In this document: piece by piece, positions 938 to 56,545 of the stretch
Layout: each line of letters begins with the position of its first letter
Numbering within the stretch: position 1 is the stretch's first letter
DNA from: Acidobacteriota bacterium
GTDB lineage: Bacteria; Acidobacteriota; UBA6911; RPQK01; JAJDTT01
Length of the DNA stretch: 64,000 bases
Direction: 5' to 3'
Assembly: GCA_965263035.1 (NCBI GenBank)
Contig: OZ253580.1
Span: 2,400,001 to 2,464,000 of the forward strand
Translations under genes and position numbers: made by a program
The notes under the pieces: model-generated
Told to the model about the DNA's origin: nothing
Databases searched by the model: none
Seen by the model: the letters and a program-made list of their open reading frames with translations, nothing else

Positions 938-3900
938 CTAGAACGAGAAGCGGAATCCAATCTGAATCTGCCGCGCTGTCGCTGCCGAGGTCACCCGGCC
1001 AACACCACCACTGGCATGGTTGCCGTTGGGCGCGTTGAAGACCGCGTGGTTGAAGGCGTTGAAGAAGTCCGCCCGGACGTCGAAGACCTTGTCTTCTCCG
1101 AAGGCGAAATTCTTGTGCAGCGAGAGGTCCACGATGGGAACTCCGTCGTAGCGCAGCGGATAGGGAGCACCGTTACCCAGGGACCGCCTTGCCGCTTCGT
1201 GACAGAAGTTGGCCCCGCCGCAGAGCGACGTGTCCATGATCCGCTGCCCCGGCACGTTCGGGTTCTCGATGCCAGGTGCCGTGAAGGCACTGGTGTCATA
1301 CCACCGCTCCACCGTGGCTCCGCCGCCCAAGGCCCCGTCCTTTATCCGGTCGGTGTACCGGCGTGAACGGCCGCCCTGGTTCCACAGATCGGTGCTGTAG
1401 TAGACCCGGAAGGGGGCTCCCGTAGTGAGAGTGGTGATGCTGGTGAGCTCCCAACCGCCCAGCAGGGACTTGGTGACCCCGCCGGCGTTCCGGAAGAAAG
1501 GCAGCTCCCAGATGCCGGACATGTAGTAGGTGCTGGAGCGGTCGTGCTGCATGGGCGCCCGCAGGGCGTGGCGCTCGTAGTCACGCGACCCGGACCAGTC
1601 TCCCCAGTTGCCGTTGTAGTTCATGGCCATGGCCTTGGACCAGGTGTAACCCATGGAAAGGGCGATACCGTCGCGGAAGCGCCGCTCCAACTTGGTCTGC
1701 AGGGAGTTGTAGTTCATGCTCCCGTGCGGCCGCAGCATGGTGTTGGGAATGACCTGGGGATAAGGCCGCCGGGCCAACTGCCCATTCCATTCACGACCGA
1801 CCTCGCCACGAGTCTCGGCCGGAATCCACTCGCGAGGCCCGGCAGTGATGGGGTCGCTGGTCAAGGTCGTGGTGCCGCCTCCGATCAGAGGCACGACGTA
1901 CCCTTCGGGCATGGCCACGTTGAAGGGGCTGATCTCACGAATGTGGCGCCCCTGGTTGCCCACGTAACCGATTTCCCACTTGGTCCCCTGGAACAACTCG
2001 TGCTGAATCATGAGGTTGTAGGAATAGACTTGGCCTTCCTGCCAATCCAATTCGGAGAAGTAGCAGGTGCGGTAGTTGCTGTTGACCCGAATGCCATCCG
2101 CGTTGACCGCACCCGTATCCCGGGGCAGGTCGAGCCGTATGCCGCTGATGAGGGAGGGGACTGCCTCTCCTCGTACGGCCGGCAGGTTGATGACGCCGAC
2201 GTTGGGCCGCATGACCCGGGCGCGGAGAATTCCGAACTCCTGGTCATAGGTCAGGCCCGCACCGGCGCGGAGTACCGTCCGGTTGGTCCCGAACATGCGC
2301 CAGGCCAGACCCAACCGAGGAGCAAAGTAGCGCCACTTGGCCTTGTAACAACCGTGGTGAGGCAGGTTGGCGAAGGGAACGGCGATTCCGACGGCACCCT
2401 GCCACTGGGCGATGTCGAAATCCTTGGGCATCATCTCTACCGGATCGATCCGGTTGGTGGCCTGGGTGTAGTCGTAGCTACAGTAGTAGTAGTCCTTGGT
2501 GTACGACCCGTTGGGGTGTCCCTCGTAAAAGGGCGGCCGCGGCTGCTCCCAGCGAAGGCCGATGTTCAGGGTCAGGTTCGGACCCACCTTCCAGTCGTCG
2601 TTGATGAACCAATTGTAATGGCTCTGGTTGAAGTGGCCCGTGTTCTCGCCGATGCCCAGCACGTTGCCGAAGACCGAGGAGGGCGTTCCCAGCATGAAAT
2701 CGGCCCAGCCCTCGCCCTCGGAAACGCCCGCGAAGGTTCCGTCGGGGTTGTACTGGAGTTGGCCCGTGCCGAACCCGTTGAAGCTGTCCCCACCGGCCGC
2801 ATAGGGCGGAATCCAATAGTAGTGGACATCCAGGTTCCGGACATGCTCGACGCCGAACTTCAGGTAGTGGTCTCCCTTCCTCCAGGAGGCCGTGTACTTG
2901 AAGCCCAGGCCCCAGTCCGCAAGCGGCGATTCGGTGGCGCCGCCCCAACCGGTGTAGCCGGAAGGGCTCAGGCGGGGCATGTTGGCGCCGCCGCGGTTGC
3001 CGTTGGGCAGATACACTTCCCAGTTGTGGCCGTCGTCGAAGCCCAGCTCCCGCGGCCAGTTGGTGTCCTCGATGGGCCGTGAGATGAGCCAGGTGAACTT
3101 CCAGATGGACTGGGTGTACTCGGTCACCAGGTTGGAACCGATGGGGTTCACCCAACTGATGCCGATCTGGTAGCCGCGGGACCGGTCCTGGAACTGGCGG
3201 TAGATGCCGTCCTGGTTGGCGCCGGGGACCCCCCAACGCCCGGTATGGGTAAAGGCGGGGGACCGCTGCCAACTGTAACGGCCGAAGATGGTGTCGTCGT
3301 TGCCGAACTGGTGGTCGACGCGGAACGAGTACTTGTCGATCTTGGTGTTGGTCGCCCGGGGATAGGCGTAGTTGCTGGTGAGCTCACCCGCCTGGTTGGG
3401 TGCCGGAGGGGGCATCAACTCCATCACCTTCTTGTAGACGGCCCCCTGCATGTTGGCCGGGATCTGGTTGTTGGGGAACGGAGCCCGCACGCCGGTTGCG
3501 TCTGCCTGGCTTCCGGTGAAGTCAAACGGATTGTAGAGCTGAGGGATGACCCCCTTGGCGCCCGAACCCGAGAAGTTGCCCTGGGTGATGGCCGTGGAAG
3601 GCGCGGTAGCGAAGCCGGCCGTTTGCAGGTTGTCAATGAACTTCTCGTAATGGGCGTGGAAGAAGGTCTTGTCCTTGAGGACGGGACCACCGATGGAGCC
3701 GCCGCCGATGTGGTAGTCCACTGGCAGCTTCTTCAGCCCCGACCGGTTCTGGAAGAAGTTGGCCGCATCCAGAGTCTCATCCCGGAAGTAGTACCAGGCA
3801 TGGCCGTGGAACTCGTTGCTCCCGCTCTTGGAGAGCATGGTGATGACCGCCCCGCCCACGCGGCCGTACTCGGCCGAGTAGTTGTTGGTGATGACCTTGA

Positions 3901-18594: not shown

Positions 18595-18801
18595 TATAGC
18601 AAGAAGAGAAGTGAGGAACGAGGCGTGAGAGCTAGGAGTCTGCGCGGTAGAAATGATCGTAGCGAGAAAGTGGGGAATCGAGGCCGGATTTTCTCGATTG
18701 TGAGGTGCATAGTTGTTCTATTCGCCGAGAAATCGGGGAAATATGGACCGATTCTACCGCTGTCGCAGTAGATCAATTTCTGCGGCGCAGGCTCCTCCGG
18801 C

Positions 18802-36143: not shown

Positions 36144-36219
36144 TGGTGGAGGTAATCGGATTCGAACCGACGACCCCCTGCTTGCAAAGCAGGTGCTCTT
36201 CCAACTGAGCTATACCCCC
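36144..36219 (-). tRNA. tRNA-Ala (TGC)
   Basis: GGGGGTATAGCTCAG...CCTGC-TTTGCAA-GCAGG...GTTCGAATC...CCA, 76 nt. Confidence 0.97.
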
Positions 36220-36402
36220 ACCCTGGACCGAGAAATCTATAGCGAAAATCGCCGGAGCAATTGGCTTGCGTCCCCGGCGATTCACCCTATGAGCGTCCAG
36301 TTTAGCAGCCCCGGACAACGTGCGTCTCGGTCCGGAGCGGCGACCCTTAGTCGTCGAACTCCGGTGAAGCCATGGGGGGGGAGGGCGACTGGGCGACGGG
36401 AA

Positions 36403-37044
36403 GTCGCGGTAGGGACGCCGGTTGCCCAGCGCCCCCCGCGCAGATCCGTGCGTGCCCGTTAAGGCACACGGCTCCTACCTCAGGTAATGACGGCAGGTCG
36501 CGACGCCCGCCGTATCCGACCCCCGCCTGTGTCACGGTAGCCCGGCTCTGAGTCCGGTCCGTACTTTGGTGAGCCGAATTCCCCTTGGTTCCACCCCTTC
36601 GCTCCACCGACTCCGCAGAGAGTTCCCCCTCCTTGTTCGCCCGCTTCATCACTACTATGGGTGAATCCGATTGCTTCCTCTCTCCCCTCATGGGTTACGG
36701 CTTTCCCCTTTCCCACAAGGCCCCGGCTTTCGCCGGGGAGAGAGTAAGCCCTCCCAGGTCCCGACACCAGATGTACGTACGTGCATGGGTTCTTTGACAC
36801 CGCAGAGCCCGGCTGCCCCTCACCCTGGCGGTCCAGCCGGTGTTGCCTTCGACCGCGACTACAGCCTCGGCACTTCCGATCAGGGAGCTTTCGATGCTCA
36901 ATAGCCTGCCCATACGCACCGCTACCGACGCTTCGCCGACACCCTCACGGGTGCCCACGCACGGCTCGCGGAGAAACGTGGATGGTTAGTCCTTCGTTTC
37001 AGCGGACTTTCACCGCCTATCTTGTGCCAGTTAGCCTGGCGCAC
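36403..37044 (-). ncRNA. ORF-less group II intron (IIB-type), 642 nt
   Basis: 5' GTGCG at 37044; domain V GAGCCGTGTGCCTTAACGGGCACGCACGGATC; domain VI ending CCCTACCGCGAC; flanks rejoin to a REP hairpin. Confidence 0.88.
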
Positions 37045-37059
37045 AGCCGCCGCTCCAAG

Positions 37060-39042
37060 TCACCCAGAGACGGTGCGGGGCCGGGTGAAGGGTTCTTCCA
37101 GGTATTTGCTTGCCTCGGCCTGGGCTCCATTGTAATCGATCTTGCTGTTTGCGGCTTTTCGGTATTCCGACTTGGCCCGCTCCCGCTGTCCCAGAATGTC
37201 GTAGATCTTTCCCAGGTGGATGTGGATCCAGGTCTCGATCCAGGGAGGATTCAGGTTCCCGTTGAGCGACTCCCGGAAGGCGTTGGCCGAATTGGAGAAG
37301 CTGTGCTGCTGGAAGAACACCTCACCCAGCCGATAGCTGGCCATGGAGCTTCTGGGGTCCATCTCCTGGGCCTTCTCGAACTCCTGAATCGCCGCCACGA
37401 ACTCCGACTTTCGCTGGTAGTCCTCGCCCAGCGCGATGTGGACCAGGACTCGCATCCGGTCCGAATCGTTCAGGATCTTCCCGTTGGGATCCACTATCAC
37501 CCGGAGGGGCCGGTCCTTCATATCGAGCTTGAACGAGGTGGAGCGGCCCCCGATGACAAATTTGTCGTCCTTGGCTTCGCCCTTGGTCTCGATTCGCAGG
37601 TCGGCCGGCATGCGGAAGAGGTCGATGTCCTGCTGCACCTGCCCGCGGATCTGGAAGTTCCCGTCTCTCATCTTGTAGATGTTGTAGTCGATCTTGAACT
37701 CGGGGACTCCGACCGACTCGACCCACTGGACGAAAAACCAGCCGTAGTCTTCGCCGGTCTTCCGTTGGACGAAGCCGACGAAGTCCTGGGTGCCGGTCTC
37801 CTGGTTTTTCCGCTCCTGGTACCAGTCCTTGAAATATCCGTTGAAATCGTCGCGGCCGATGAGCTGACCCAACATGTAGAGCACCCAGGCCCCCTTGCTT
37901 CCGACGATGGATTCGTACTGGTCGGAGCCGGGTTTGAAGGTGATGCCCTCGGTGATGGGCGCCAGCTTCTGGTGCTTCATGGCTTCCACCGCCTCACGTG
38001 CCAACGCGGCACGAAAATCGTCGGCGTGGTTCATCTCCATGTAGCGGAGAGCGGCATAGGTACAGAAGCCTTCGCGGAGGAAGACGTCCCGATACCCCTT
38101 CAGGCGCGCCGAGTAGCCCCACCAATGACGGGCCAGCCGTTTCGCCAACTCCATCACCGGCATCCGCTTGGCCTCGAGCAGTCCGGATTCCAGCAATATC
38201 AGGCCGAACGACCCGGAGGTCTCCAATTCCACCTTGCCCACCGCAACCAGGTCCAGACTGGACAGCGGGCTGGGTCCGTACTCCTGGTTGAAGAATTCCA
38301 GAATCTTTCCGATCTCCTGGGCCCAGGGAGCCAAATCGTCCGTGAAGTCCTCCCTTACGTGGAAGCTGACCGGGACCGGACCCTCATTGAAGGTCTGACG
38401 GAGAAATTGGGAGACCACCACGGGGATCTCGGTCAGGGGAAAGTCACTCGACCAATTGAAGACTTCGGTGACGCCCTCGGTTCGGATCGACTCCAGGCGG
38501 CCGGGCGCTACAGCCGAGAATCCGAGGGGAACCCGGACCGACACCCTGGCCGTTGCCGAGTCCAAGGGAAGCAGGTGCTGCGGGAACCAGCGGCCTTCGG
38601 TCAGGAGCAGGGCTCCGTCGGGGGAGATCACGGCCTTCTCGGTACGAGCGACATTCAGGAAGGCGAATTCATCGCCTTCCAGATTCCCCTCGATCCGGAA
38701 GCTGAGCGTCACCTCGGCCCCCGGATTGAGGGACTTGGGACCCTGAACCCTCATATTCTTCTGGCTCAGGTCGTCGAATCGGGTCGAGTATCGGTTCCCG
38801 TCCTGGTCCGTAGTCTCCAGAATGCTGAGCTGGTTGTTGAAATCGAAGGGAATGCTGAGGATGTTCTCCAAGACCTTGAAGGTGACCCGGGCCGTCCCCT
38901 GCAAGAAACGCTCCTGGGGATCCACCTCTACCTCGATGTCGTAATGGCTCACATCCAACAGACGGGGGCCGGTGGGAACCGTCTCCGCCCAGGCCAGAGC
39001 ATTCCCCAGAACCAGAAGAAAAAACGCAGTCAGCACTTTCAT
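37060..39042 (-). CDS. M1 aminopeptidase-fold protein with C-terminal TPR; zinc motif degenerate
   Basis: Signal peptide; LAKRLARHWWG..LREGFCTY..KGAWVLYML; TPR helices. Confidence 0.78.
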   Translation of the reverse strand: MKVLTAFFLLVLGNALAWAETVPTGPRLLDVSHYDIEVEVDPQERFLQGTARVTFKVLENILSIPFDFNNQLSILETTDQDGNRYSTRFDDLSQKNMRVQGPKSLNPGAEVTLSFRIEGNLEGDEFAFLNVARTEKAVISPDGALLLTEGRWFPQHLLPLDSATARVSVRVPLGFSAVAPGRLESIRTEGVTEVFNWSSDFPLTEIPVVVSQFLRQTFNEGPVPVSFHVREDFTDDLAPWAQEIGKILEFFNQEYGPSPLSSLDLVAVGKVELETSGSFGLILLESGLLEAKRMPVMELAKRLARHWWGYSARLKGYRDVFLREGFCTYAALRYMEMNHADDFRAALAREAVEAMKHQKLAPITEGITFKPGSDQYESIVGSKGAWVLYMLGQLIGRDDFNGYFKDWYQERKNQETGTQDFVGFVQRKTGEDYGWFFVQWVESVGVPEFKIDYNIYKMRDGNFQIRGQVQQDIDLFRMPADLRIETKGEAKDDKFVIGGRSTSFKLDMKDRPLRVIVDPNGKILNDSDRMRVLVHIALGEDYQRKSEFVAAIQEFEKAQEMDPRSSMASYRLGEVFFQQHSFSNSANAFRESLNGNLNPPWIETWIHIHLGKIYDILGQRERAKSEYRKAANSKIDYNGAQAEASKYLEEPFTRPRTVSG

Positions 39043-39046
39043 GGCA

Positions 39047-40201
39047 TCACTCCTGCAGATAACGGCGGACCTGCATCGCGGCTTCACGATACGCGTTCTG
39101 CCGGCCCAGACGGCCGGCGGCCTGTCCCAATTTCTTCCTGACGCTCGCCCTCTCCCCCTCGTCAGTGAGGAGCCGTATCAGATAGCGGCCGATGGTCCGT
39201 CCCCGGGCTTGCCACTGAATGAACTCGGGTACGATGCGTTCGCCCATGATCAGGTTGGTCAGAGAGTAGGTCCGGGTCCGGACCAGCAGACGGGCGAATA
39301 TCCATGTCGGCCACGACATCCGGTAGACCATGGCGAACGGAACGCGCAGCAACGTGGCTTCCAATGTAGAGGTTCCACTTTTGATTATGGCACAGTCGGT
39401 CCGGGGCAGGACTTGGGCCGTATCCTCCTCCCGAAACTCCAGGGGCAAGGGCTTGCCTCGACTTCCCAGCCAGCGCCGGTAGACTCTCTTCAACTCCTCG
39501 AGCGGGACGTCCGGAGCCTTGACCACCCAGAACCGGGCCTGGCAACGGCGGGAAGCGTATCGGGCCGCGTCCAGCAACCGCGGGAAGATTCGCCGCACTT
39601 CCTGGATCCGGCTGCCCGGCAACAAGGCCACCACCGGTTCCTCCCGGGGTCCGGAACCGCCACCGGGCGCCACTTCTCGAAGCCGCTCCAACGACGGATT
39701 CCCCACGTAGTGAGCGTTGACGCCCCGAGACCGAAAGTATTCCTGCTCGAAGGGGAAGACGGCCAACACGAGGTCCACGTCCCTCCGAATCTGGCTGACG
39801 CGCGAAGAGCGCCAAGCCCAGACCTGGGGTGCAATGAAGTATACGACCGTCACACCCGCCTGTTTCAAGCGGCGGGCCAGCCTCAGATTGAAGTCGGGGA
39901 AATCGACCAGGATGGCGAGTCGGGTCCGGCGCAACCGGACCTCCCGGAGAATGTTCCGATACAGCTTCCAATAGCTGCAGAGATTCCCAGCCGCCTCCCA
40001 GGGGCCGATGGCGGCAAGTCTGGAAACGTCCTCCAGCAGGTCGACGCCTGCCTGGGACATCTTTTGGCTTCCGCTGCCGAACCACTGGATTCGGACCCCG
40101 GGGCAGAGCCGGTCGACTTCCCGGACCAGGGCCGCGGCGTGCTGTTCGCCGGAGGTTTCTCCGGCTACCACCAGAACGGAGACTCTTGGAATCACATCCA
40201 T
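39047..40201 (-). CDS. lpxB: lipid-A-disaccharide synthase
   Basis: AGETSGE, VDFPDFN, PQVWAWR, LLPGSR, SGTSTLE; start uncertain. Confidence 0.93.
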   Translation of the reverse strand: MDVIPRVSVLVVAGETSGEQHAAALVREVDRLCPGVRIQWFGSGSQKMSQAGVDLLEDVSRLAAIGPWEAAGNLCSYWKLYRNILREVRLRRTRLAILVDFPDFNLRLARRLKQAGVTVVYFIAPQVWAWRSSRVSQIRRDVDLVLAVFPFEQEYFRSRGVNAHYVGNPSLERLREVAPGGGSGPREEPVVALLPGSRIQEVRRIFPRLLDAARYASRRCQARFWVVKAPDVPLEELKRVYRRWLGSRGKPLPLEFREEDTAQVLPRTDCAIIKSGTSTLEATLLRVPFAMVYRMSWPTWIFARLLVRTRTYSLTNLIMGERIVPEFIQWQARGRTIGRYLIRLLTDEGERASVRKKLGQAAGRLGRQNAYREAAMQVRRYLQE

Positions 40202-47240: not shown

Positions 47241-47870
47241 GTGCGCCCGACATGGGCTGTATCTAAGGGATGAAAGATCCCAAGGGAGGTGATGGGACCA
47301 ACCCTAGCCGAACCGCAAGGCGTAGCCGCGAGGTGAAGCTGAAGGAAGCGGAAGGCAAACCCACGACCGCAGGAACACGAACCGGCAGCGAGGCCGGGTG
47401 CGGGCGGTGAGCTGGCGAGCAACAGCGAAACCCGAACCCCATCCAGACGTACCAGGTAGAGCCGGGCGGCCCGGGGGGAAAGATGCAGCACCTTACTCGG
47501 GGAGATCTCAAGGGTGAGAGCCTTTGAGAAGTCAGCAGAGGTCATAGTAGCGAAGAAGCCGGATAATGCCGGTGGAGCGAAGGACCGAAGGAGTCGGACG
47601 GGCCCTATGGTGGACTCGTCAGCGGGATCGCAACTACCTCCGGAAACGGGGCGGGGGGAGGCCCCTCGGACCCGGCACGGAAGGCCCAAGGGTGGAACCC
47701 GTCAAGCCGGAAGGGCGGAGATCAAGTCCCAGCGGCGGCGAAAACCGGAAAGAAAGGCCCTTTACGAGGCTCGAAAGAGCCTCGAGTGACTCCAACCGCC
47801 GGATACTGAAAACGGTACGTCCGGTGGTGTGGGAGGGTGCAGGGGCGCAATCCCCTGCACTCGACCCGAT
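47241..47870 (+). ncRNA. ORF-less group IIC intron, 630 nt, copy 1
   Basis: 5' GTGCGCCC; IIC-type domain V AACCGCCGGATACTGAAAACGGTACGTCCGGTGGT; 3' ..CGACCCGAT; domain IV ~200 nt closed by GAGTC/GACTC with no RT ORF. Confidence 0.92.
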
Positions 47871-55915: not shown

Positions 55916-56545
55916 ATCGGGTCGAGTGCAGGGGATTGCGCCCCTGCACCCTCCCACACCACCGGACGTACCGTTTTCAGTATCCGGCGGTTGGAGTCAC
56001 TCGAGGCTCTTTCGAGCCTCGTAAAGGGCCTTTCTTTCCGGTTTTCGCCGCCGCTGGGACTTGATCTCCGCCCTTCCGGCTTGACGGGTTCCACCCTTGG
56101 GCCTTCCGTGCCGGGTCCGAGGGGCCTCCCCCCGCCCCGTTTCCGGAGGTAGTTGCGATCCCGCTGACGAGTCCACCATAGGGCCCGTCCGACTCCTTCG
56201 GTCCTTCGCTCCACCGGCATTATCCGGCTTCTTCGCTACTATGACCTCTGCTGACTTCTCAAAGGCTCTCACCCTTGAGATCTCCCCGAGTAAGGTGCTG
56301 CATCTTTCCCCCCGGGCCGCCCGGCTCTACCTGGTACGTCTGGATGGGGTTCGGGTTTCGCTGTTGCTCGCCAGCTCACCGCCCGCACCCGGCCTCGCTG
56401 CCGGTTCGTGTTCCTGCGGTCGTGGGTTTGCCTTCCGCTTCCTTCAGCTTCACCTCGCGGCTACGCCTTGCGGTTCGGCTAGGGTTGGTCCCATCACCTC
56501 CCTTGGGATCTTTCATCCCTTAGATACAGCCCATGTCGGGCGCAC
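55916..56545 (-). ncRNA. ORF-less group IIC intron, 630 nt, copy 2
   Basis: Reverse complement of 47241-47870; same length; overlapping spurious ORFs translate identically. Confidence 0.92.

Follow-up and report, generated by a model that had tools for sequence, protein, structure and literature searches.

How does an intron with no gene of its own come to lie inside a repeat of its host, and what moves it? The question is raised by a 642-nt element on the minus strand of the window analysed here, a 64,000-nt stretch of Acidobacteriota bacterium DNA (assembly GCA_965263035.1, contig OZ253580.1, positions 2,400,001 to 2,464,000). An earlier note, made from the sequence alone, had read this element as a group II intron without an open reading frame (ORF), a non-autonomous retroelement aimed at a multicopy repetitive extragenic palindrome (REP). 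The element was compared with covariance models, with its own genome (a single contig of 6,198,070 bases, 62% G+C) and with related genomes. It probably descends from a mobile, IIB-like group II intron that lacks an endonuclease and has REPs as its homing sites, and would itself be non-autonomous, its ORF having been lost; splicing and mobility of the 642-nt form are predicted.

Intron boundaries and reading of the REP target

On the minus strand, the 5′ exon ends in ...GGAGCGGCGGCT (37056-37045), the intron starts with GTGCG (GTGCGCC...) at 37044 and ends with ...CCGCGAC at 36403, and the 3′ exon begins with TTCCCGTCGCCC at 36402 (Table 1). The sequence thus confirmed the exon junction proposed at a REP hairpin, and ligation is predicted to give GGAGCGGCGGCT/TTCCCGTCGCC (here and below, a slash marks the insertion point). 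The Rfam model RF02005 (group-II-D1D4-6) matched 37010-36788 with 165.4 bits (E 6.6e-48), covering model positions 1-225 of 225 at more than 3 times the gathering score of 49, as expected for the domain I-IV architecture of a group II ribozyme; the match is full-length, whereas the model describes domains I-IV of one structural variety and is silent on ORF, target and class. RF00029 (domains V-VI) aligned end to end (model 1-77) with 36.9 bits, and its match ended exactly at 36403, reading ...CUACCGCGAC. The GUGYG 5′ end, the AGC triad with a 2-nt bulge, and the bulged A near an AY 3′ end were all found. Domain V was the most conserved part among 17 distinct ORF-less rows, and helices were preserved among 19 ORF-less copies by 5 double-sided and many G-C/G-U changes in RNAalifold, which on whole introns also gave some non-canonical long-range pairs (1-4 with 602-605) and was used for local helices only. 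No reverse transcriptase (RT) gene was found in the 642 nt, and the longest ORF of the intron (114 aa) belonged to no Pfam family.

Comparison by blastn with the whole genome revealed 7 full copies (100, 100, 99.8, 96.9, 96.9, 95.5, and 92.1% identity) and one 67-nt 5′ stub. Six of the full copies split the same REP hairpin, GGAG-S-GGCGRC-T/TTCTT-GYCGCC, between its first and second loop bases. These six and the stub are preceded by GGAG-S-GGC-R-R-CT, and the six then continue with T-loop-GYCGCC, so that 7 of the 8 copies lie in a GGAG-tagged REP. The target motif, GGAGSGGCRRCT, occurs 208 times genome-wide, compared with 38 times in a reversed-sequence control; 6 of these motifs are occupied and 202 are vacant, and 180 of the vacant ones continue with T, the loop and GYCGCC, mostly as TTCTT-GYCGCC. 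Within the window, the 13-nt motif is vacant 4 times, where 0.01 would be expected. The sequences GGAGSGGCGACT and GGAGSGGCGGCT are present 120 and 72 times in the genome, respectively, and beside the 208 tagged 5′ halves there are approximately 165 hairpins with a TTTCTT loop, plus variants.

These hairpins are arranged in arrays and, at the loci examined, follow stop codons. A 238-aa ORF (PF01797, 34.9 bits; genome 2483529-2482816, minus strand) resembling a REP-associated tyrosine transposase (RAYT) has a stop codon that overlaps an intron-occupied REP, after which a REP array follows; REPs near this gene were seen on its 3′ side only. Because of the arrays and the association with a RAYT-like gene, this short GC-rich imperfect palindrome with more than 100 copies is accepted, on its sequence features, as a REP.

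A truncated RAYT paralogue was found at genome 3478063-3478461. The 67-nt stub of the intron lies in a REP at genome 4424636-4424702 on the plus strand (locus L077, 137-203) and is followed by a HigA-like ORF and a frameshifted IS630-like transposase.

The intron reads this target through three exon-binding sites (EBS), each paired with an intron-binding site (IBS) in the exons. The sequence AGUCGC was located at the apex of a GCCGA...GAAGGCAAC hairpin in every fold, with a loop of 8 nt in the Rfam alignment, 6 nt in RNAalifold and 4 nt (AGUC) in the single-sequence minimum free energy (MFE) structure. The earlier note had placed AGTCGC (36860-36855) in an Id3-like stem-loop and had named a fold with it outside the EBS1 loop, or copies outside REPs, as evidence against its reading; no such fold was seen, and six of the 7 full copies and the stub were found in the REP here, as were 18 of 19 full-length introns of two congeners. 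Its pairing also holds as described: AGUCGC is fully complementary to GCGACT, and its pairing with GCGGCT includes a single G-U, both REP variants being multicopy. The first G of the REP 5′ arm (37051) forms the unpaired spacer between IBS2 and IBS1.

Covariation was examined in a set of 43 copies from five genomes. Seven EBS1 variants were found, each beside a matching 5′ exon: AGUCGC/GCGRCU, AGUCCC/GGGACU, AAUCGC/GCGAUU, AACCCC/GGGGUU, GGAUGC/GCAUCU, GGGUGC/GCACCC, and GGUCGC/GCGACC. Pairing of EBS1 with its own IBS1 extended over 6 of 6 positions in 39 copies and over 5 of 6 in the other 4, compared with a mean of 4.7 of 6 against the targets of other variants, with which all six positions paired in only 107 of 1096 pairings. 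Three EBS2/IBS2 variants co-vary likewise (GCUCC/GGAGS, CCUAC/GUAGG, and CAUGC/GCAUG). The seventh full copy (681390) lies in a different hairpin, GGTAGGGGTGCCC/CTTGTGGGTGCCC, and carries the GGGUGC and CCUAC variants; by its sequence it is a case of compensatory change of both EBS1 and EBS2 within this genome alone.

In group IIB introns, EBS3 lies in an internal loop of domain I; in group IIA its role falls to delta, a position adjoining EBS1. Immediately 5′ of EBS1, all copies listed had U, whatever the exon base. Intron nt 250 showed three-state covariation with the first 3′-exon base (A:T, G:C, and U:A), pairing in 39 of the 40 copies in which this position is filled, and was the sole candidate EBS3 column that also fitted a copy whose exon starts with A. 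Along the REP, EBS2 thus reads the 5′ tag GGAGS, EBS1 reads GCGRCU, and the candidate EBS3 reads the next loop base. Judged by these three sites, exon recognition is of the IIB kind. A domain V of 34 nt is typical of IIA and IIB, and one of 32 nt is typical of IIC; domain V here is 32 nt. The IIB assignment made at first therefore stood for exon recognition, and the length of domain V did not agree with it. Because of this 32-nt domain V, and because the protein of the parent intron (see below) was not placed in a class, the intron is called IIB-like, a name based on exon recognition, rather than being given that of a bacterial class.

Table 1. Coordinates of the intron, its parts and other features within the window
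Feature	Position	Strand	Basis
ORF-less group II intron, 642 nt, GUGCG to ...CCGCGAC	36403-37044	-	RF02005, RF00029, blastn copies
IBS2 GGAGC, conserved REP 5′ tag	37052-37056	-	Pairs with EBS2 GCUCC
IBS1 GCGGCT	37045-37050	-	Five nt of the six-nt GGCGGC 5′ arm of the REP and the first loop nt
EBS2 GCUCC, intron nt 157-161	36884-36888	-	Unpaired stretch of Rfam alignment; covariation
EBS1 AGUCGC, intron nt 185-190, apical loop of Id3-like hairpin	36855-36860	-	Rfam structure line, RNAalifold, MFE fold, covariation
Candidate EBS3, A, intron nt 250, 1x1 internal loop of basal domain I stem	36795	-	Covariation
Remnant of the first 56 codons of the intron-encoded protein (domain IVa region)	36524-36691	-	Protein similarity
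Deletion junction, intron nt 547-551, 1275 parental nt missing	36494-36498	-	blastn against 21 full-length copies
Domain V, 32 nt, AGC triad and CG bulge	36443-36474	-	RF00029 alignment, two gaps relative to the 34-nt consensus
Domain VI, bulged A at 36410 (putative branch point), 8 nt from 3′ end	36403-36441	-	RF00029 alignment; A unpaired in RNAalifold
3′ exon start: IBS3 (T at 36402), rest of REP loop, 3′ arm GTCGCC (36397-36392)	36392-36402	-	Sequence; vacant-site pattern
M1-family peptidase gene with TPR repeats, upstream	37060-39087	-	ORF; Pfam PF01433 and TPR families
tRNA-Ala (UGC), downstream	36144-36219	-	ARAGORN; Rfam tRNA, 72 bits
IIC-type ORF-less intron just after the same REP on the other strand (GGCGAC-AAGAAA-GTCGCC-GCTC/)	47241-47870	+	RF02001, RF01998, sequence, census
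Second IIC-type ORF-less copy, inverted orientation	55916-56545	-	Rfam, census

Parent introns, mosaic structure and signs of recent insertion

All 8 other genomes of the genus matched the intron, and none of 6 genomes of the sister genus did. A full-length parent of 1917 nt was present in the congeners G002, G007, G004, and G005 (blastn, 21 full-length copies), and the 642-nt intron aligned to it in two parts, intron nt 1-547 corresponding to parent nt 1-552 and intron nt 551-642 to parent nt 1826-1917. The same junction was shared by 19 of 19 aligned ORF-less copies from G000, G005, G006, and G007. These ORF-less copies share a single internal deletion of 1275 nt in domain IV, which removed the RT/maturase gene of the parent. 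An RT-encoding parent, which had been proposed as something to look for, was therefore present in four congeners and was not found in the genome under study. ORF-containing parents coexist with the ORF-less form in G007 (10 parents examined) and G005 (1 parent).

The parental ORF was intact, with a YADD motif, in 20 of the 21 copies and encodes an intron-encoded protein (IEP) of 499-519 aa; it runs through domains V and VI and stops 1 nt before the end of the intron. Since Pfam found no family other than RVT_1 in the parent IEP (tested on P0008), this protein is considered endonuclease-less: it appears to consist of RT plus X/thumb, with no DNA-binding and endonuclease (D/En) domains, as in the En-less classes D, E, and F. 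Its best solved relatives in the PDB were IIC RTs (156-169 bits), and its best tblastn matches on plasmids were 53-59% identical, all annotated only as group II RT/maturase. Neither these PDB and plasmid matches nor the excerpts of PMC3552965 gave a named placement of its class.

In G002 and G007, 19 parents were examined, and all but one of them (18) occupy REP hairpins of the same kind. REP homing is therefore a trait of the lineage as a whole, with its parent, and was not acquired by the ORF-less form.

What is left of the gene in the 642-nt intron is a remnant of its start. With residues 1-56 of the 499- and 519-aa IEPs this remnant shared 70-75% identity (E ~1e-14 to 1e-16), and with those of the 518-aa P0011 it shared 60-65%. 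A match to the IEP end (residues 485-519, 60-65% identity) was found in another frame and is encoded by domains V-VI. Fused N- and C-terminal scraps of an IEP had been suspected in domain IV; the N-terminal one is real, whereas the stretch taken for the C terminus (...AVIT-stop) is no homologue of it: beyond the deletion junction, the parental reading frame simply continues until a stop arises by chance. Frameshifts separate the ORF-less copies within the remnant, which is therefore not maintained as coding sequence; with these frameshifts and no Pfam family, the remnant ORF was rejected as a gene. The domain IVa region (nt 370-470) is nevertheless the second most conserved part among the ORF-less copies, after domains V-VI, with 90% identity.

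The copy in the window is a mosaic. Compared with a G002 parent, it was 97% identical in domain I, but the figure was 72% over domains II-III and 81% at the 5′ side of domain IV; compared with the ORF-less copy 681390, the three parts gave 89%, 91%, and 96.5%. At sites informative between these two, it was parent-like to approximately nt 260 and ORF-less-like from approximately nt 273, the switch lying between nt 229 and 273; the two parts are nt 1-260 (window 37044-36785) and nt 273-526 (window 36772-36519). This one alignment suggests that domain I, which bears all three EBS, was exchanged between autonomous and non-autonomous introns.

ORF-less relatives with approximately 73% identity and with other targets were present in several Vicinamibacterales metagenome-assembled genome (MAG) records. 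A single ancient loss of the ORF, common to these relatives and the present intron, was considered and judged unlikely, with domain I being 97% identical to the local parent and 75% to the relatives. In one such record (loci L082 and L084, ~1901-3094), an ORF-less relative (73%) is nested as a twintron in another copy at approximately intron nt 244, not in this REP. At loci L056 (G007) and L058 (G006), an ORF-less copy of 755 nt carries approximately 100 extra bases near intron nt 97-113.

Several copies in the genome under study are nearly or fully identical. Copies 2437044 (that of the window) and 3066875 showed 0 differences in 642 nt, copy 6115527 differed from them at 1, and copies 3351629 and 3743283 were identical to each other; orthologous coding DNA is 90-96% identical between these species. 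The copies with 0-1 differences occupy unrelated loci, and the identical ones are flanked by different REP variants on both sides, so that the unit that moved must end at the intron boundaries. The window locus was intron-free in 7 of 7 congeners, in which no exact empty site was found, the spacers holding other REP variants. The 3066875 locus was intron-free in 8 of 8 congeners and provided a clean empty site: in G006 and G007, an uninterrupted ...TAGGAGGGGCGACT-TTCTTG... REP stands right after the same stop codon. We infer that the insertions were recent and RNA-mediated.

Replication-strand bias and the source of reverse transcriptase

Cumulative GC skew along the genome is lowest at 2.86 Mb, coinciding with dnaA (2.872 Mb), and peaks at 5.84 Mb. 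Every one of the 8 copies is oriented in the direction of the replication fork, compared with 68% of vacant targets (P ~0.05). The intron strand is therefore the lagging-strand template. Among the copies listed for G002, G005, and G007, the strand switch brackets dnaA, one G005 and one G007 copy near the presumed terminus being ambiguous. This bias is what would be expected of fork-coupled retrohoming, and the endonuclease-less RmInt1, which uses the lagging-strand template, has the same bias (PMC8914252).

A second family, of IIC type, uses the same REP on the opposite strand. A census with an exact 5′ probe gave 23 copies, of which 14 measured 630 nt, one 1848 nt, and 8 (one IEP-bearing) are of unmeasured length. 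The parent of this family is 1848 nt, and its 515-aa IEP (2 copies) matches the GsI-IIC RT with 451 bits (E 5e-134). All but one of the 23 copies lie directly after GGCGRC-AAGAAA-GYCGCC-GCTC/C, 4 nt past the REP stem. The family thus has the features of group IIC, a class C IEP and insertion a few nt after a stem-loop. Nineteen of its 23 copies are co-directional with replication, compared with 32-38% of vacant sites (P 9e-7 to 2e-5). Since these copies are co-directional on the opposite REP strand, REP orientation cannot explain the strand bias.

A 1782-nt insertion sequence (IS) with an rve-type integrase ORF, present in approximately 10 copies, occupies the same position inside two IIC-type introns (genome 3067891-3069672 and 3923461-3925242).

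A third kind of intron, called type X here, encodes an En-less IEP of 438-471 aa and is present in 3 full copies and 1 broken one (genome 5841477-5843436, plus strand; 985490-983531, minus strand; and two more). Type X introns insert after ...TCTCA/. As measured by tblastn, identity to the parent IEP was 31-35% for the type X IEP and 36-38% for the IIC IEP. A type X intron as source or helper of the 642-nt intron was not supported, given this target and its weak RF02005 match of 23-35 bits.

From these data, the following course is proposed. The intron would be transcribed with the upstream gene and spliced, so that the transcript regains an intact REP hairpin. Given an RT acting in trans, the free intron RNA would then reverse-splice into a REP that is single-stranded on the lagging-strand template at the fork, and an Okazaki fragment would prime cDNA synthesis, as described for RmInt1. 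The natural driver would be the 519-aa IEP of the parent lineage, and the present domain I, the targeting module, would have been taken from the parent by recombination or template switching. The parent is absent from the assembly, and the copies here would be either recently stranded or served by an RT outside the contig; the source may be a parent lost very recently, a parent on DNA outside the contig, or a heterologous RT.

Several observations weigh against this account. A tblastn search of the genome with four parent IEPs for a cognate RT found only remnants and two unrelated IEP types (31-38% identity). The RF00029 score does not reach the gathering score of 40, mostly on account of a domain V that is 2 nt short of the consensus. 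Occupancy is low, at 6 of 208 target motifs, and EBS1 faces competition for the 5′ arm from the GC-rich stem of the hairpin. The strand statistic is weak for this family alone, with P ~0.05 here and with the copies of related genomes not being independent. Some copies in other genomes have decayed, showing a GAGCG 5′ end or mismatches in domain V. Finally, no ligated exons joined across the 642 nt were present in the contigs of the RNA libraries X9, X11, and X17 and of run X1, which tells little for or against splicing, contigs being prone to drop rare spliced forms; these contigs cover the intron and its flanks and break at repeat boundaries.

Three other explanations were weighed. It is possible, if doubtful, that the copies are stranded fossils, laid down while the parent was present and, after its loss, now at most splicing and no longer moving. 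Such a history would agree with a single 6.198-Mb contig in which no cognate IEP was found, with the 6 occupied motifs among 208, with the decayed copies in congeners, and with the statement in a review that, in bacteria, an ORF-less intron almost always shares its genome with a related IEP (PMC4424553). Set against it are three copies that differ at 0-1 of 642 positions, two more that are identical to each other, and two loci empty in all congeners examined, from which it follows that any loss of the parent was very recent; this explanation therefore differs from the preferred one, an ORF-less derivative mobilised in trans into REPs, in timing only.

It is improbable that an unrelated resident IEP, the IIC-type one of 515 aa or the type X one of 438-471 aa, drives the ORF-less copies. 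No other group II RTs were found in the genome, the IIC family shares both the REP and the replication bias, and some IEPs of Thermosynechococcus elongatus have relaxed intron specificity (PMC2882425). The resident proteins, however, are only 31-38% identical to the parent IEP, whereas identity among the drivers of T. elongatus is 84-100% (PMC2882425). Moreover, type X introns target ...TCTCA/ and not REPs, and the domain IVa kept by the ORF-less copies (nt 370-470, 90% identity) resembles the one in their own parent.

Spread at the DNA level without reverse transcription, in which a RAYT would move segments flanked by REPs, or REPs would recombine or undergo gene conversion with one another, is very improbable: the RAYT-like gene (PF01797, 34.9 bits) does end inside an intron-occupied REP that is followed by a REP array, REPs do give many short homologies, and gene conversion could yield identical copies without an RT, but the mobile unit ends exactly at the intron boundaries (for which reason RAYT-mediated movement was rejected), the REP variants on either side differ between identical copies, an intact REP stands at the empty orthologous site, changes in the EBS follow those in the targets, and gene conversion cannot create new insertions at loci empty in congeners.

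An ORF-less derivative driven in trans by an IEP of its own lineage thus remains the preferred explanation. A wider and rather unlikely reading joins the two families: one REP family would be the shared landing pad for two unrelated endonuclease-less lineages on opposite strands, one reading sequence inside the hairpin and the other reading the stem-loop and inserting just after it, both mostly gene-less. The IIB-like derivative would then be independent and long-lived, moving between species, re-arming itself by domain I swaps, and still transposing here by means of a heterologous RT (IIC-type, type X, or extrachromosomal).

Known systems and neighbouring features

Among known systems, the nearest is the TeI3 family of T. 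elongatus, whose ORF-less introns are mobilised by the IEPs of related introns (Mohr, Ghanem & Lambowitz 2010, PMC2882425). Both cases have a single ORF deletion whose breakpoints are the same in every copy, remnants of the N- and C-terminal ends of the ORF in which an indel disrupts the frame, insertion sites where EBS and IBS pair well, families with differing EBS, and ORF-less copies that outnumber or rival the ORF-containing ones; mobilisation in trans by an IEP has been shown for TeI3 and is presumed here (PMC2882425). They differ in that the parent IEP here is En-less, whereas the TeI4 IEPs have D and En domains, and in the homing site, which here is a host REP and there comprises genes, other introns, and intergenic sites (PMC2882425). 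In addition, the ORF-less lineage described here spans at least 4 species and includes a genome without a related IEP: a trans-acting related IEP in the same genome was encountered in G007 and G005 and not in the genome of the window.

RmInt1 of Sinorhizobium meliloti is reportedly also directed to a multicopy target, its preferred site being an IS element. Together with the En-less classes D, E, and F, it resembles the present lineage in having RT and maturase regions without D/En, in recognising its target through EBS1, EBS2, and EBS3, and in its lagging-strand-template bias (PMC8914252, PMC3552965). The present lineage differs in its 519-aa IEP, in an ORF that runs through domains V-VI, in its 32-nt domain V, and in a target that is a 25-nt REP hairpin.

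Group IIC introns are likewise En-less and use multicopy DNA hairpin motifs, namely terminators and attC sites (Zimmerly & Semper 2015, PMC4424553). The second family fits this description, inserting 4 nt after the REP stem, whereas the 642-nt intron inserts inside the hairpin and reads the 5′ arm by an 11-nt EBS2 plus EBS1 pairing, that is, by ordinary sequence homing rather than by recognition of structure with an IBS1 of 3-5 nt.

REPs also serve as safe, abundant, extragenic landing sites for the IS elements ISPpu9, ISPpu10, ISPsy8, ISPa11, and IS1397 (Tobes & Pareja 2006, PMC1525189; PMC12288879). Those are DNA transposons that rely on recognition by protein, while recognition here is by RNA base pairing. 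In Pseudomonas putida, a group II intron was located near REPs in 2 of 9 copies (PMC1525189), compared with 7 of 8 here. The target strategies listed for bacterial group II introns are homing sites, terminators, and attC sites, and ORF-less forms are described as rare and short-lived (PMC4424553). In the excerpts yielded by a full-text literature search, no intron lineage homing to REPs was found described, the nearest entry being the 2 of 9 copies in P. putida (PMC1525189). The special points of the present case are the REP homing, the use of one REP by two intron classes, and a gene-less lineage without a resident RT.

The element offers a natural example of a hitch-hiking retroelement that uses a host repeat as its landing pad. 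REPs provide approximately 200 neutral extragenic sites per genome, prone to form hairpins when single-stranded, and therefore a safe niche for a retroelement. The EBS/REP code is directly testable and bears on how a ribonucleoprotein invades a stable DNA hairpin and how introns survive without a resident RT. Two mainly gene-less families were found in this genome, with 7 and 23 copies, together with two intact IIC parents and no IIB-like parent. Given so many gene-less copies, and the ORF-less relatives and twintron in Acidobacteriota MAGs, RT-based surveys may have greatly understated how common non-autonomous group II introns are in uncultured lineages.

As to the surroundings, the M1 peptidase gene ends with a stop codon 3 nt upstream of the REP tag, and the intron lies 183 nt upstream of tRNA-Ala. 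All three are on the minus strand, and the co-orientation first noted between an M1-like gene and tRNA-Ala was borne out by Pfam (PF01433) and ARAGORN. In contigs of the RNA library X11 and of run X1, an 81-nt skip (36802>36884, within domain I and including the EBS1 hairpin) was observed, with 23 letters on its shorter side; it could represent a variant copy from a relative. Window 18652-18670 (plus strand) contains the core of another repeat, which has approximately 160 copies in the genome, is among the most frequent 14-mers and is unrelated to the REP.

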